A stretch of 64,000 bases of DNA from sequence record PZ386958.1; one strand, given 5' to 3'. The translations under genes and the position numbers were made by a program. Origin of the DNA: a phage. The notes below the pieces were generated by a model. It ran no database searches and had not been told where the DNA came from. It was given only the letters and a program-made list of their open reading frames with translations. Shown one piece after another: positions 3,086 through 47,905 of the stretch; positions within the stretch are counted from its first letter, which is position 1, and the number at the start of each line of letters is the position of its first letter.

Positions 3086-3585
3086 TGGCTGAAGTTATCT
3101 CTATTTCAAATGCTACACGAGTGCATTCGTATAGAGGTGTTCTTATCATTACTGATAAGTTATCTGTAGAGGCTGGCTCAAGGGTCAGCCTTTCAGGTTA
3201 TGTAAGTGATGGTGGAACCTCTGACGTTTTCACTATTTGCAGGTTACTTGATGCTCCAATGAGTGGAAAACCGTTTATTTTAGGAAATTGTAGTGAAATT
3301 GTTAAAATTCCATTTGACAGTTCATGCCTTTTGGGTGTAAAGTTATATAACTGCGAGAATAAACGTATCAATGTTAATAGCATTGAAGCCGCTTTCATTA
3401 CCCTCGACACTGCATTTCAATCTCCAATGACAGTTAATAAAGAAACAAACAGACTTGAGTACATTTTTTCACAAAATGATTACAAAGTACTTGTCAAAGG
3501 TAAAGTATATGGTATGATTGTAAATGTGGTAGATGAATCTGGTAACCATTCAACAGTCCTTAAACAAAAAGTAAGGTTTAATTAA
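3085..3585 (+). CDS. hypothetical head-module protein
   Basis: 166 aa ORF, start overlaps the upstream stop (ATGA). Confidence 0.3.
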   Translation: MAEVISISNATRVHSYRGVLIITDKLSVEAGSRVSLSGYVSDGGTSDVFTICRLLDAPMSGKPFILGNCSEIVKIPFDSSCLLGVKLYNCENKRINVNSIEAAFITLDTAFQSPMTVNKETNRLEYIFSQNDYKVLVKGKVYGMIVNVVDESGNHSTVLKQKVRFN

Positions 3586-28846: not shown

Positions 28847-29037
28847 TATTCAATATCTACAAGTTCTTGTGCAATGCTTTTTAGATTACCTTTCAAGAAA
28901 ACCTTCTCAGAACCTGAAAGAGATGAATTGTCAATTAACCTGTTCATTCTCTCAAACAACTTCTGCTTACGGTTCTTGATAGTTTCCTTTGAAGCACCTT
29001 TCATCATCGCTGCATGGGTTCTTCCACGGTGGCTCAT
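28828..29037 (-). CDS. hypothetical protein
   Basis: 69 aa basic ORF downstream of the polymerase. Confidence 0.3.
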   Translation of the reverse strand: MSHRGRTHAAMMKGASKETIKNRKQKLFERMNRLIDNSSLSGSEKVFLKGNLKSIAQELVDIEYWRHQK

Positions 29038-29098
29038 AAGCCCTCCTATACAAGATATAGTATAAGGTACTCTTCCATGAGCACCTTGTCAATACTAA

Positions 29099-29655
29099 TT
29101 AGTGTACCTCATACCAGCTTTTACCAACCTTACCAGTACCTGTAACAAGTGTTTCTTTCTTAAGACCTAAGTTCTTAGAAGCTTGTCCATAATACCAGTC
29201 AGTAACTGCTTTCACTTCTGCCGTCATACTTTCTGGACATTCCCAACTCGTCTCGTCGTGATAGGAGCACAATAAACGAGCACCTATAGCTGGCTTGCGA
29301 CCGTTCAACTTCATCAAACCTTCGTCAATCATACGACGGCAAGCAAGGTTAATTGCTTCATTCTGAACCTGTGCTTCCGAACTCATCAGGAGGTAGTTCA
29401 GTAGTTTATGTGGAGATTTGCACCATATCCATGCTCCAGCGACCCTGATATAACCACCTTTAGCAATTGAAGAGTTCTTCCCGAAAACCTCTTCCAGAGC
29501 CTTTTTAGACGCCTTAAAATCGGCTTCTAAGCTATCAAGTAACTTCTTAATCTTTGGCAGACGCATATAGTAAGTTTGTTTAGTCAATGCACCTTCTTCC
29601 GTAGATGATGCCTTGATAGTTTTTGCAAACTTCTCGTCACCTGCACCGAACAATA
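29099..29655 (-). CDS. DNA polymerase (family A), exon 2
   Basis: Begins with TA completing a Leu codon; encodes LFGAGDEKFAK (distal half of motif B) and the motif C-like HDE (LLCSYHDETSWE); reading frame differs from exon 1. Confidence 0.75.
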
Positions 29656-29923
29656 CATCTGGTCAATACACTCGCAAGGTGTACCAGTTCTCTTATGAAC
29701 TTCTCCGCATTTCTACGGAGTGTCGGACTATATCACGTAGTAGTAATACTACCGTTGCACTTGGGAATGGTCATTAGCTTACCACCCTACTCTACTCAGT
29801 TCATACATTAAGTATGCTTTTCGATAGTCTCTGAACGTTTCTCTTAAGAGGCTTCGCTGCTGATTACCATATCTTTACAGACTTAGGCTTCCAGCAATTC
29901 ACAACGTTTTACATGCGCCACTG
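29656..29923 (-). ncRNA. group I self-splicing intron (ORF-less, 268 nt) interrupting the DNA polymerase gene
   Basis: 5' exon ends in U; internal guide GCGCAU at intron nt 6-11 pairs with exon AUGCGU (6-bp P1 with U-G at the splice site); P-, Q-, R- and S-like elements AATTGCTGGAA, AATCAGCAGCG, GTTCAGAGACTA, GATATAGTCCGAC in canonical order; terminal G; no ORF. Confidence 0.8.
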
Positions 29924-32066
29924 ACGCATAAATGCCATTTTTGGCTTTCTTACGACCTTTTGTAATCTCGTGGAGAAGTTCCTCATCCTGTGTCTCCCTA
30001 CAACGAACAATATCTTCTTCCTTGTTCAGACCAAAGTAAATACTGTTCAGTGTATGCGCATCAGTCCCTGTGTAGACTTCATAGAGGTCGTTCTCAGCAT
30101 CATAACGAAGATACTTGTCAGTTTCTGGATTAAGATACTTATCGAGATGCTTGCAATAGTATCTGCCATCATCCTGTTTAGTGAACTCTACAAACTCTTT
30201 ACCCTCAGTTACTGCTTTAGTGAACTCTTTATCACCCATAAAGTTACAAAGGAGAACTAGCTGGGCTGAGTTCATATCAACGGAGACTACGTTGGTTCCC
30301 TCCTCACAAATCCAAACCTCCCTCATCGGTGCTCCATAGACAGCAGCACCAGACGGTACGTTTACAATGCCATATTGTGTCATACGTCCAGTTGAAGTAC
30401 CAAACACCATTGCACCAGCACTAAGGCGACCATCAGGACGAATCTGGTTCAACCAACCTTTTTCATCATCCTTTGAGTTCTCAATAGTTCTGCGTCGGTG
30501 CATCAAAGTGTAGTATTTAGCAATCTTCTGTCCAAGCTCACCTTCAATCGTATCATAAGATGATTCAGTAAGTTTTGGTGAAGTACGGATTAAGCAAGGC
30601 TCAAGCAAATCTGTGTATTTCTTCACAGACCAGTTATGCTCAATGTACTGTACACCTTCATGTTCAACATAACTCAAACCACACCGCTCAACCATTTCCT
30701 GCCACTTAGGATGTTTTGTAATCATCTTTTTATTGTCTTTGAAACGACAAACTTTGACAGGACGACCATCTGAGTCTTTCTTGTAGTTCCAGTCATCTGG
30801 AATCCAACCAACTGATTTCAAGTAGTCTTTAACAACGGCTACCTGAGTCATACGAGAAACTTCAAACTCAATTGGTGTATATGGTGCATCAATCAAACCT
30901 GTGTAGCGACTTGACTCAAGTTCAAAGTGGTTAACAACGTGGCTGTTATAGTACTTCACAGTCTTGACTGTTTTTACTGGTTTCCAGTCTTTGCATTTTT
31001 TGCCAATCTTTGCATTCAACTCGTTGCAGATTGCACGAGCATCCTTCATTGCTACAAAGCCTTCCTTGTATTCTTCACCAGTTACAGTGTTGGTTGGCGT
31101 ATAGCAATTCCTTTTTTCAATGTTAAAAATCTTTGTAGTTGGCTTACCAAATGGCTTGATTTCATATGTCTGCATCTCACCGTTACGTACCTGCTGACGA
31201 TACTTTGTCTTAGGGTACTTGGTAATTCTCTTCAGTCCATCTGCGTGACCAAATGCTTCAACATACTCATTCCAAGCTTTTGCAAACTCTTCTCCAGTAA
31301 CTTTACCTTTGGTCTTAATAGTTGGAGGTAGATGTGGTTCAACCTCTGAAGCAAGCTCATTAGTCAACTTGTCAAGTTCCTTTACATGGAACTCCATAAG
31401 CTCTTTATCAGCTTTCCAACCATTGATAGCTTGTTGACTCATCCAGAAAGATGTTTCTTTAGCTCGCATGTAGGTTTCATAAGTGTCTATGCCACACTTC
31501 TTAAGCTTGAGATACTCGTTATCAAGTGCCCGTTTAGTTTTGGCGTTAATACGGATATCTTCTACAACACGAGTGAAGATTTCTGCATTCCACACACCCC
31601 AATGCTCAATCTCTGGCTTACGAACACCAACACGAGCACCCCATGCAGCCAAGCCATGAGCACCTTTATAACCCTTTGGAGTTGGTCTATCCATCCACTG
31701 AACACGAGACTGAATAAGAGAATCCTGAAAGAAATTACTCCACGGCTTACATTTTGGATTATCAAAGTTCCATAAATCAGGTGCAATGTGATTGAAAACC
31801 CACCAGTCATAGCCGAGACCATTATGGATGCAAAGACGTTTTGCCTTTAACGCAAATTCAACACCTTCACGTAAGCCGCCCTTGATGTACTTGGTATACT
31901 TGTGACCGAGGATAGGCTCGTCTGTAAAGACCCATACAGGCGGCTCTTCATCGTCAGATTTATAATCTGCGAAAGCCATTACGTGCACTTTAGTGAACTC
32001 AAGGAGTAAACCATCAGTTTCTGTATCACCAACCAAATGTAAGTTTTTAAAATCTACGTTTTCCAT
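29924..32066 (-). CDS. DNA polymerase (family A, with 3'-5' exonuclease), exon 1
   Basis: Exo I motif DTETDGL; motif A VSVDMNSAQL; proximal motif B RKKAKNGIYA; start taken as the ATG at 32066 (MENVDF) preceded by GAGGGAG. Confidence 0.8.
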
Positions 32067-32261
32067 TTTTACTCCCTCTAAAATCATTAACCACATACAT
32101 TACTGCAAAAAATTATAAAAAGCAAGTTGACAATGTACTTGACAAGGTGTTAATCTTTGCGAAGTGGGTTTTTACTTAAAAGGTTACTTAACAGTTTAAC
32201 TATACAGATACTTTAAAACTCTTAAAAGATTATTTAATAGCTTTTAAAAAGCTTTAAAGTA

Positions 32262-32280
32262 TAACGTATAGAATACGTTA
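32262..32280. promoter_or_regulatory. 19-bp palindrome TAACGTAT-AGA-ATACGTTA (operator candidate)
   Basis: Perfect 8-bp arms around a 3-nt centre, about 45 bp upstream of the first + strand gene in the divergent intergenic region. Confidence 0.4.
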
Positions 32281-32323
32281 AGATAAAAGATTAAAACTTA
32301 ATAGTTACTTAAAAGAGGCTTAC

Positions 32324-32746
32324 ATGCAGAAAATGTTTGTTCACCCAGACATAGCTGACTTTGTTAGAGCTTTGCAGAAGTTGGAAGAACTTGACATTGC
32401 TGCTCAACGAGAATATGCTCACCATCACAGGAGAATGGTTGATATACAACATGAAATAGAGTTGTCTGAAAACTATGAAGATGACTTAAAATGCTCTGTG
32501 TTTGAGCATATGAAAGATGTTGCTACAGCTAGACGTAAAGCTAAAGACACAGTTGCTTTACTAGATTCTCTTAAAAAGAGGTTGCAAAGTGGTACAGACC
32601 TGTGTAATCTAGCATCACTGATTAATGATGTTGAAACTTCTTGGGATAGACACTACTATCCACGTTCTGAAAAGACACTTGACTTTTCTTCATCTGAAAA
32701 CTTAAAATGTTCTAGAAAGAAACTTAACCAACTGAGAGAGAAATAA
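32324..32746 (+). CDS. hypothetical protein
   Basis: 140 aa ORF, first gene of the rightward unit. Confidence 0.4.
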   Translation: MQKMFVHPDIADFVRALQKLEELDIAAQREYAHHHRRMVDIQHEIELSENYEDDLKCSVFEHMKDVATARRKAKDTVALLDSLKKRLQSGTDLCNLASLINDVETSWDRHYYPRSEKTLDFSSSENLKCSRKKLNQLREK

Positions 32747-32747
32747 T

Positions 32748-33560
32748 ATGAATATCGATGTAGAAAAGATGCTTGAAGAGAAAGGTATTGACGAAGCGTT
32801 CTTAATCAATGCCGTAGAAAGCATGGCTATGATTCTTCGTGGGAACAACTACACAGAACAGTTTATGCCTGCAAGCTATAACTTGCCTGAAGACAAGTCT
32901 GATAACGGTGCTTTTGCAGAACAGGTTAACATGATGTTGTGTGATAAAACACTTGCTTTAGCATCTATCGTTGTAGGTGTTGATGCTCTTGCAGAGTTCA
33001 TTTTTTATGAGATGCAGAAAAATGACTATATTGCCATGACCTCTGAAGAAAAAGACTCGCTACTGCTCTTAGGTTATGATGAGCTAGTTAACCTATTAAT
33101 TTCGTCAACGAGTGCTGTTATGGCTGCTCTTGAGAAGCGAATGGAAGAGAAGCTGTCACGATATGAAAAGCTTGATTGGGGTGTAGAAGAGTTAAACCCA
33201 CGAATCAAAGAGATTATCCAGCAAACAAAAGATTCTTTGGAAGAAGCTGTGAAAAATGATTCTGTAGCTGACATAGAGCCACTTCAGGTGAAAGTTGCAT
33301 TGATGATTCCAGCCATCTCCACGATGATGAATATCGTTGCACTAATCCAGCTTTCACAGATGATGGGCACAAGCATTGAGTTCATTGAGAGTATGACTTG
33401 TGGTGTGAGTATGCAAGCAATCAATGATGTTCTGGTGAGCATTGGTGCTTCAATCATTGAAGAGAAGCTGCGCATTAACTTTGGTGATGATTTTGTGAAG
33501 CAAATCTCAGCTATGGCTGAAAAAGAGTATTCACAGACTAATACTGACCAACTGCACTAA
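32748..33560 (+). CDS. hypothetical protein
   Basis: 270 aa acidic ORF. Confidence 0.4.
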   Translation: MNIDVEKMLEEKGIDEAFLINAVESMAMILRGNNYTEQFMPASYNLPEDKSDNGAFAEQVNMMLCDKTLALASIVVGVDALAEFIFYEMQKNDYIAMTSEEKDSLLLLGYDELVNLLISSTSAVMAALEKRMEEKLSRYEKLDWGVEELNPRIKEIIQQTKDSLEEAVKNDSVADIEPLQVKVALMIPAISTMMNIVALIQLSQMMGTSIEFIESMTCGVSMQAINDVLVSIGASIIEEKLRINFGDDFVKQISAMAEKEYSQTNTDQLH

Positions 33561-47896: not shown

Positions 47897-47905
47897 AACT
47901 TGACA

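Follow-up and report, generated by a model that had tools for sequence, protein, structure and literature searches.

Which elements control the divergent junction between the DNA polymerase gene and the rightward replication genes of a Felix O1-like phage, and what else might this non-coding gap do? The question is raised by a 64-kb stretch of phage DNA (record PZ386958.1), called the window throughout, whose numbering is used for all positions in and around the gap. An original prediction, made from the sequence of this DNA, had named the gap as the most likely site of divergent early promoters, an operator or a replication origin. Comparison with relatives revealed the footprints of two back-to-back sigma-70-type promoters and, downstream of the rightward one, a predicted leader filled with short quasi-palindromic octamers that recur elsewhere in the genome. 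On balance we regard the gap as an early control region, in which both promoters would be read by host sigma-70 RNA polymerase and the leader would act at the DNA level as an array of protein-binding sites.

Genomic context and borders of the gap

The window represents the genus Felixounavirus, as the 2.5 kb around the gap are 96–97.5% identical to more than 200 Felixounavirus genomes. This genus comprises the Felix O1-like myoviruses of Escherichia, Salmonella and Shigella. The gap corresponds to the Felix O1 gene 96/97 intergenic region and is the sole divergent junction within the window, with the minus-strand DNA polymerase gene on one side and a rightward unit on the other that encodes, in order, a homologue of gp97 (140 amino acids), a 270-amino-acid protein, a deoxynucleoside monophosphate (dNMP) kinase, a primase-helicase and an exonuclease. 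The replisome gene set around the gap is T7-like.

The gap was originally placed at 32097–32323 (227 bp). It is indeed an intergenic, AT-rich region, but it proves to be longer, because the polymerase gene probably starts at 32066 and not at 32096: a Shine-Dalgarno sequence, GAGGGAG, sits 5 nucleotides (nt) upstream of 32066, and five annotated relatives (SUSP2, Sf15, Moogle, Michonne and CHB7) place the start there. The intervening stretch, 32067–32096, is best read as non-coding because it contains a 1-nt indel between genera. With this start the gap covers 32067–32323, or 257 bp, and is bounded by the following features:

32064–32078, minus strand: start of the DNA polymerase gene, with ATG at 32066–32064 and Shine-Dalgarno sequence GAGGGAG at 32078–32072, placed from the sequence and the annotation of relatives.
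32313–32326, plus strand: start of the gp97 homologue, the first rightward gene (140 amino acids), with Shine-Dalgarno sequence AAGAGG at 32313–32318 and ATG at 32324.

A check of the sequence found every motif listed in the original prediction where it had been placed; several of them take on a different meaning in the light of the comparisons below.

Conservation of the non-coding block

Conservation of the gap is pronounced at every phylogenetic depth surveyed. When the window was aligned with 21 Felixounavirus contigs (IMG/VR loci), nucleotide diversity was lowest at the gap (0.002–0.009, versus 0.03–0.07 in the flanking genes), and comparison with phage ULIM3 showed 100% identity across 236 nt of the gap, against 97.3% over the surrounding 2.5 kb. 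Across the genera Felixounavirus, Suspvirus and Mooglevirus, 73–83% of the columns in 32119–32296 are invariant, which is on par with the polymerase gene, while far fewer are invariant downstream (47–68% in the gp97 gene and 10–45% in the next gene); the gp97 protein is 75% and 62% identical in Suspvirus and Mooglevirus, respectively. In the more distant metagenomic relative L061, gp97 retains 56% protein identity, yet the 50 nt at 32137–32186 are 92% identical and constitute the best-conserved 50-nt window in a 3.3-kb alignment. Matches to the core block in IMG/VR and metagenomes came solely from contigs resembling Ounavirinae genomes or fragments of them. The core promoter block had no match in the genomes of 185,579 bacterial and archaeal species, and an origin of this block in a bacterial genome was rejected on that basis.

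Two predicted back-to-back promoters

Promoter footprints were derived from 26 unique sequence variants representing at least four lineages. The rightward promoter, P_R, comprises:

32127–32132, plus strand: P_R −35 hexamer TTGACA, matching the consensus at 6/6 positions, invariant in all relatives and 1 bp from the −35 element of the leftward promoter, P_L.
32139–32145, plus strand: second TTGACAA repeat within the P_R spacer, invariant across lineages and a possible regulator site.
32148–32156, plus strand: P_R extended −10 element TGtTAATCT, reached by an 18-nt spacer after TTGACA, with a predicted start at about 32163.

Among the variants the P_R −10 element takes the forms TGTTAATCT, TGGTAGTCT and TGTTAGTCT, with variation confined to two 'n' positions. 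TGnTAnTCT is kept throughout, and the positions that vary are the uninformative ones of the extended −10 consensus TGnTAnnnT. P_R thus displays each of the extended −10 sigma-70 features that were tested, namely a −35 hexamer, TGn, T at −12, A at −11 and T at −7, and a spacer within 16–18 nt. The A-tract AAAAAG further upstream (positions −45 to −40, approximately) looks like a proximal UP subsite, and the combination of A-tract and TTGACA is common to P_R and the other TTGACA (host-type) promoters of the phage. A promoter is also annotated at the P_R position in the GenBank record of phage ASO1B (MZ726792). The early promoters of T4 and T5 belong to the extended −10 sigma-70 class with UP elements; P_R likewise combines TTGACA, TGnTAnnnT and an A-tract and would be transcribed by unmodified host polymerase from the onset of infection, but differs from them in its 18-nt spacer with a second invariant TTGACAA and in the invariance of its whole 50-bp core.

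The two TTGACA hexamers, at 32127–32132 and 32139–32144, had been described as tandem. Both copies are present, but they do not abut: their starts lie 12 bp apart, within the direct repeats TTGACAATGT and TTGACAAGGT. No −10 element was found at a usable distance downstream of the second TTGACAA. The 50-bp P_R core holds far more constraint than a promoter by itself requires, which suggests an overlapping regulator-binding site.

On the minus strand, the candidate promoter P_L comprises:

32120–32125, minus strand: P_L −35-like hexamer TTGCTT, invariant in 26/26 variants and matching the consensus at 3/6 positions.
32103–32119, minus strand: P_L spacer of 17 nt, which holds a genus-specific TATAAT (32117–32112) and also serves P_R as its A-rich UP-like region.
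32097–32102, minus strand: P_L −10 element TAATGT, at a fixed distance in the 26 variants, with a predicted start at about 32088–32092.

P_L and P_R are back-to-back because their −35 elements are 1 bp apart. The P_L −10 element always conforms to TAnnnT (TAATGT, TAGGGT, TAGTGT or TAATTT), its flanks and the sequence downstream vary, and the spacer keeps a constant length of 17 nt in eight different sequences. An invariant −35-like element, a variable spacer of fixed length and a TAnnnT motif form the footprint expected of a sigma-70 promoter, although P_L agrees with the consensus at just 6/12 positions. Initiation near 32088–32092 would fit the polymerase start at 32066: the ATG at 32096 would then be untranscribed, and the ATG at 32087 would have neither a leader nor a ribosome-binding site. 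The same back-to-back layout occurs in Pectobacterium phage Arno162, which shows little sequence similarity, with better hexamers (TTGACC-17-CATACT leftward, TTGACA rightward) and −35 elements 5 bp apart.

The prediction of divergent early promoters in this gap is therefore supported in so far as two back-to-back sigma-70-type promoters emerge from the comparative footprint, but the elements involved differ from those that had been stressed. The perfect minus-strand TATAAT (ATTATA on the plus strand, 32112–32117) is present, yet a role as a conserved promoter of the polymerase gene can be rejected: it has no −35 element at 16–18 nt, it lies inside the P_L spacer and it is absent outside Felixounavirus, the site reading TGAAAC, TGAAGA, TCATAA or TGAAGT in Suspvirus, Mooglevirus and L061. 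Two other minus-strand candidates lie in the AT-rich part of the gap, TTAAGA-15-TATAGT at 32225–32199 and TTTAAA-18-AATAAT at 32258–32229. The former is annotated as a promoter in ASO1B, so that its minus-strand annotation points to a site other than the P_L footprint, and its position is matched in L061; the hexamers of both candidates coincide with copies of the octamer described below, and neither is kept in Arno162 or Kolesnikvirus. A Pho-box-like reading of two minus-strand TTGTCAA repeats was also rejected, their spacing being 12 and not 11 and the associated −10 element not being conserved.

Published work on Felix O1 concerns the homologous locus. Reverse transcription PCR detected transcripts of genes 96, 101 and 105 within 5 min, and neither an RNA polymerase nor a recognised sigma modifier is encoded by the phage (PMC3185647). 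Its authors (Whichard et al. 2010) assumed divergent early promoters between genes 96 and 97, and no recognisable promoter was found in that gap by consensus search (PMC3185647). The promoters they assumed match the region described here.

Further promoter-like sites were noted in the window and in relatives. A third TTGACA with similar flanks (AACTTGACATTG) lies at 32391–32419 on the plus strand, inside the gp97 gene, and a 17-nt spacer leads from it to TATGCT (10/12 match); Suspvirus and ESh21 retain this TTGACA, which reads TTTACA in the Sf15/Moogle subgroup of Mooglevirus. It is possibly an internal promoter bypassing gp97, its coding location making the conservation ambiguous. The extended −35 motif TTGACAAGGTG occurs at three window sites, 29092 (minus strand), 32139 (plus) and 47900 (plus). 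At 29092, immediately past the polymerase gene, and at 47900, ahead of a plus-strand gene, TAnnnT follows 17–18 nt on, and the recurrence of the motif hints at a phage-specific promoter subclass. In Kolesnikvirus (relatives infecting Erwinia and Cronobacter), the polymerase gene and the control region are separated by an inserted HNH endonuclease gene, and a second, gene-proximal promoter-like site (TTGACT-18-TATGAT with TG) stands where the window has a palindrome.

A predicted leader built from short repeats

Downstream of P_R, the gap contains:

32163–32323, plus strand: predicted untranslated leader of the rightward early unit, 161 nt, 42% A, 35% T and 10% C (77% A+T).
32175–32315, plus strand: octamer array of about 12 quasi-palindromic CTTwwAAG-like copies, spaced 10–13 bp apart.
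32208–32262, no strand assigned: large imperfect dyad of 55 bp, centred at about 32235, with 27-nt arms that are 78% complementary and built from inverted octamers.
32262–32280, no strand assigned: 8-3-8 palindrome TAACGTAT-AGA-ATACGTTA around leader position +100; its 7-3-7 core is conserved.

The octamers include CTTAAAAG, CTTAACAG, CTATACAG, CTTTAAAG, CTTAATAG and similar types. The repeat TTACTTAAAAG, of which two exact copies (32172–32182 and 32305–32315) had been reported and a further 10/11 copy occurs at 32184–32194, belongs to this array. A strict pattern, CT[ATC][AT]A[ACT]AG, was matched seven times against 0.34 expected, and not one of 1000 dinucleotide-preserving shuffles gave as many. 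The octamer is enriched in every lineage tested, namely SUSP2, Moogle, ESh21, L061 (7 versus 0.37), Arno162 (3 versus 0.21) and Kolesnikvirus (4 versus 0.15), and in L061 its copies occupy nearly the same positions although the stretch is just 60–68% identical. Tandem Repeats Finder reported nothing in the region. Helical phasing of A-tracts over the whole region is unexceptional, merely in the top 4–6% of windows, and strong intrinsic curvature from phased A-tracts is unsupported.

The 55-bp dyad is significant against the ULIM3 genome (E 1e-7), and a dyad of the same kind occurs in SUSP2, Moogle, ESh21, L061 and Arno162 despite sequence turnover, whereas Kolesnikvirus lacks one. The palindrome, first noted as a 19-bp element, is present as an 8-3-8 arrangement. 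Seven of its eight pairs are kept in 8/8 aligned sequences from three genera; two pairs carry changes in both arms (C:G to T:A and A:T to T:A), and single-sided changes are absent. Folded as RNA, it would give a modest hairpin (−3.5 to −5.8 kcal/mol); it may be either an operator or an RNA hairpin. Taken with the octamer array and the conserved dyad, the palindrome with its compensatory changes makes the suggested operator plausible.

Could such motifs be chance features of an A+T-rich spacer that merely separates two genes? Consensus promoter matches in the gap are no commoner than in shuffled sequence, and short A/T-rich repeats arise easily in AT-rich DNA. We nonetheless consider this very improbable given the conservation across three genera at the level of the polymerase gene, a within-genus diversity that is the lowest of the surveyed stretch, an octamer count that no shuffle attained, the compensatory changes in the palindrome and the expected footprint at both promoters.

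The composition of the leader raises a different possibility. P_R directly precedes the most A+T-rich 150 bp of the window (32165–32314, 79.3% versus 72.7% for the runner-up), and its counterpart in ULIM3 holds the same rank across that complete 88.7-kb genome. P_R, perhaps aided by the doubled TTGACA, might thus fire into the least stable duplex and activate a replication origin, the transcript forming an R-loop or priming the phage family-A polymerase and the primase-helicase loading on the displaced strand. Such an origin would be compatible with the promoter reading; its position between the polymerase and primase-helicase genes, the T7-like replisome gene set, the extreme conservation of non-coding DNA and the large AT-rich dyads, which could extrude, all speak for it. 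The T7 primary origin consists of the tandem promoters phi1.1A and phi1.1B and an AT-rich segment, and T4 oriF/oriG of a promoter and a downstream unwinding element. The gap likewise has a promoter, or doubled −35 element, upstream of the least stable duplex and beside T7-like replisome genes, a resemblance of architecture only. It differs from the T7 and T4 origins in that P_R would be read by host polymerase, in that its AT-rich part is a structured octamer array and in that ULIM3 has three copies.

Other observations speak against an origin. The promoter-plus-leader cassette is not unique, with at least three copies in ULIM3, though T7 and T4 also have several origins, and the octamers are kept in sequence as well as in place, a constraint that DNA needing only to melt easily would not impose. 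The gap has the A+T-rich unwinding element of an iteron-type origin such as lambda ori or plasmid oriV (79.3% over 150 bp), but its repeats are 8-bp quasi-palindromes at a spacing of about 11 bp, with no DnaA boxes, 13-mers or classical 17–22-bp iterons, and no initiator or DNA-binding fold is recognisable in gp97. A search of the gap for host-factor sites (DnaA, IHF, Fis, CRP, 13-mer, boxA) found none beyond chance, the one 8/9 DnaA-like site lying in a non-conserved stretch. GC skew was rejected as an origin marker: it follows gene orientation exactly, and its turn coincides with the gene-orientation switch and is uninformative. We regard an origin at this site as unlikely, though worth retaining as a candidate.

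Related cassettes and the concatemer junction

Comparisons with the rest of the genome were made in the relative ULIM3 and lie mostly outside the window. A paralogue of the P_R core occurs at ULIM3 3106–3140, at the genome's other divergent junction (30/35 identical, E 8e-6), and a looser one at 80654; the double-TTGACA block correspondingly recurs at 3117 and, more loosely, at 80654. All three ULIM3 cassettes have CTTAAAAG-type octamers within the first 60 nt and leaders of 120–160 nt; at 3117 there is, in addition, an AT-rich hairpin, and the leader closes in a similar way, with AAGAGGC-TAC-ATG. No octamers accompany the remaining TTGACA promoters of ULIM3. The cassette at about 3106–3270 leads into an unannotated plus-strand open reading frame (ORF) starting MKNRTNKGQFKKGQSGNPSGRPKGSRNK, where the record shows two tiny ORFs on the minus strand, probably a wrong gene call.

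Clusters of at least four octamers per 160 bp were found at just two places in ULIM3, the gap and a 1.6-kb non-coding region (82016–83664) where two units converge. The annotation of phage Pr103Blw identifies this region as the concatemer junction, with a 581-bp direct terminal repeat inside it. Dozens of short repeats crowd the junction, including CCTTAAAAG and CTATAAAG to the left of the terminal repeat and CTTGTTAR and CTGTTAAG inside and to the right of it, together with TTACGTAA palindromes. These form the same vocabulary as the gap leader, and 32296–32319, the 24 nt just upstream of the gp97 start, match a junction segment of ULIM3 at 22/24 positions. The T7 terminal repeat is flanked by short-repeat arrays of the CCTAAAG type (SRL and SRR), and a very similar motif (CCTTAAAAG, CTATAAAG, CTGTTAAG) is dense around the Felixounavirus 581-bp terminal repeat. 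In the present phage the repeat vocabulary also forms the leader of an internal early promoter; we know of no link in T7 between the terminal-repeat arrays and such a leader.

The gap is not itself a genome end, as the 581-bp terminal repeats of Pr103Blw lie at the record ends and the homologous gap about 50 kb inside. Inference of the terminus from the coordinates of the UAB_Phi87 record was set aside as unreliable, this record seemingly not having been opened at the physical ends. The ORF table of UAB_Phi87 (JN225449) begins in the tRNA region, with ORF1 a homologue of wV8 gp055 (PMC4837284); in PhageTerm-based records (Pr103Blw, MW481326) the terminal repeat falls within the non-coding region of genes 23/24. 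Either the UAB_Phi87 record was not opened at its mapped ends, or the UAB_Phi87 and Pr103Blw reports disagree.

The cassettes and the junction bear on whether the octamers, together with the hairpin, act as RNA in the 5′ untranslated region of long early transcripts, serving as a translational operator or enhancer of gp97 or as a processive antitermination or stability signal that helps RNA polymerase past the numerous intrinsic terminators of these units. A precedent for the former is the A/U-rich, repeat-containing leader of T4 gene 32, which mediates translational control. In all three ULIM3 cassettes the octamers fall within the predicted transcribed leader at or near the head of a unit, and they are missing from the other TTGACA promoters, as noted above; the last octamer of the leader abuts the gp97 Shine-Dalgarno sequence, and the palindrome, whose changed pairs have all changed on both sides, folds into a hairpin. 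Most asymmetric octamer variants point in the sense direction, but this apparent common orientation carries little weight because the octamer is quasi-palindromic (CTT-ww-AAG). In addition, read-through of numerous terminators in Felix O1 is an acknowledged open question (PMC3185647), for which such a signal could provide an explanation. At the concatemer junction, however, the same octamers occur in both orientations and no gene follows. The leader folds no better than shuffled sequence (z-scores −1.3 and −0.2), and no covariance model of Rfam 15 matched inside the gap at E up to 1, so that a known structured RNA in the gap was rejected. The hairpin shows no G:U intermediate among its changes. 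Comparison with a nut/boxA arrangement (CGCTCTTTAACAA-like plus hairpin) gave no match to rrn boxA at up to three mismatches, with the hairpin in some clades only, and the boxA-like CTCTTAA at 32219 is not conserved between genera, becoming CCCTTAA, GACTTAA or GTCTTAA. We consider an RNA-level role of the leader improbable, to much the same extent as an origin.

A bolder proposal is that the octamer arrays constitute an undescribed cis-acting system of the Ounavirinae, with a cassette of doubled TTGACA, CTTwwAAG array and AT hairpin at three ULIM3 sites at or near unit heads. This system might load a factor, from phage or host, for terminator-proof early transcription, or couple transcription, replication initiation and concatemer processing. 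We put it forward as a speculation that is quite unlikely to hold.

A model for the early control region

As for the leader itself, a DNA-level array of protein-binding sites is our preferred, though weakly held, interpretation. We prefer it because the quasi-palindromic sites recur about once per helical turn, because their dyad arrangement is conserved, because they occur in both orientations at the junction without a following gene and because the RNA fold is unexceptional. The DNA-array, RNA-leader and origin readings of the leader are mutually compatible and not exclusive.

We propose that unmodified host sigma-70 RNA polymerase would read P_L and P_R back-to-back. P_L, weak by consensus, would start a short-leader DNA polymerase mRNA at about 32090, while P_R, with its UP-like tract, TTGACA, 18-nt spacer and TGtTAATCT, would initiate at about 32163 and direct transcription of the long rightward unit. 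A sequence-specific protein may coat the octamer sites over the first 150 bp past P_R, and this coating would modulate early rightward transcription or shut it off. The leader DNA, which melts easily, may at the same time assist replication initiation.

Repeat-array operators of a comparable kind include R1 parC/ParR, with 11-bp iterons around a promoter, the heptads bound by Omega of pSM19035, and phi29 p4/p6 at divergent early/late promoters. The array described here resembles them in that numerous short sites, some direct and some inverted, follow one another at intervals of about a helical turn in a promoter region. It differs from them in lying downstream of the promoter and in that the adjacent gene product, gp97, shows no ribbon-helix-helix or helix-turn-helix fold.

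Several points weigh against the proposed early control region. The 18-nt spacer of P_R is suboptimal, and P_L (TTGCTT-N17-TAATGT) matches the consensus at 6/12 positions and was missed by a consensus scan; its invariant TTGCTT could be kept merely as the UP element or flank of P_R. The palindrome is clade-specific, being absent from L061, Arno162 and Kolesnikvirus. The octamers lie downstream of the promoter in 3/3 ULIM3 cassettes, which fits an RNA-level role equally well. No protein is known to bind the octamers, and the structural model of gp97 gave no match to a DNA-binding, ribbon-helix-helix or helix-turn-helix fold. Finally, our literature search found no transcription-start or transcriptome study for any member of the Ounavirinae.

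Neighbouring genes

gp97 has no Pfam family or PDB sequence match. Its AlphaFold model (predicted local distance difference test, pLDDT, 71) is a helical hairpin whose fold matches are non-specific (E above 0.1), and a role as a DNA-binding autoregulator is neither supported nor excluded by this model.

The 270-amino-acid protein (32748–33560, plus strand), a homologue of gp98 encoded in the early replication unit, bears the label 'minor tail protein' (PHROG 4251) in the annotation of many relatives. Neither Pfam nor the PDB gave a match for it, and the published list of Felix O1 virion proteins (PMC3185647) does not include gp98. We reject this assignment, a name inherited from PHROG/pVOG, which is probably a propagated misannotation.

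The DNA polymerase gene contains a group I intron at 29703–29986 on the minus strand (Rfam RF00028, 63.3 bits against a gathering threshold of 50, E 6e-15), the sole Rfam match in window positions 29000–33000. It splits the polymerase into ORFs 29099–29653 and 29883–32096. The intron stretch of about 280 bp is missing from about 90% of the 21 IMG/VR loci and is found in about 105 of about 260 Felixounavirus GenBank records at 90–99.7% identity, where the gene is usually annotated either as a single 'DNA polymerase' or as split.

Significance for Felix O1-like phages

As a kind of element, a phage early control region read by host polymerase is ordinary and had already been presumed for Felix O1. 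Undescribed, as far as we could find, are its degree of conservation, the doubled −35 core, and a leader built from repeats that has paralogues in the genome and kinship with the terminal-repeat arrays; our search found no paper describing the octamer array, the dyads, the compensatory changes or the paralogous cassettes.

Felix O1-type phages are classical Salmonella typing phages and widely used candidates for biocontrol and therapy, yet their transcription programme is essentially unmapped, and the 2010 Felix O1 paper left temporal control and terminator read-through unexplained. The present analysis provides base-level predictions for this programme: both early promoters with their putative starts, a hyper-conserved core, and a recurrent repeat-built leader resembling the repeats at the genome ends. 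The complete identity of the gap across 236 nt between independent isolates suits it to diagnostics, to use as a landing site for engineering and as a source of strong portable promoters. Should the leader turn out to serve as an origin or in antitermination, the Ounavirinae would have their first defined cis-acting element for replication or processivity. If the octamers do form a cis-acting system, this would address how Felix O1 controls its transcription with neither a polymerase nor sigma factors of its own, a question open since 2010.

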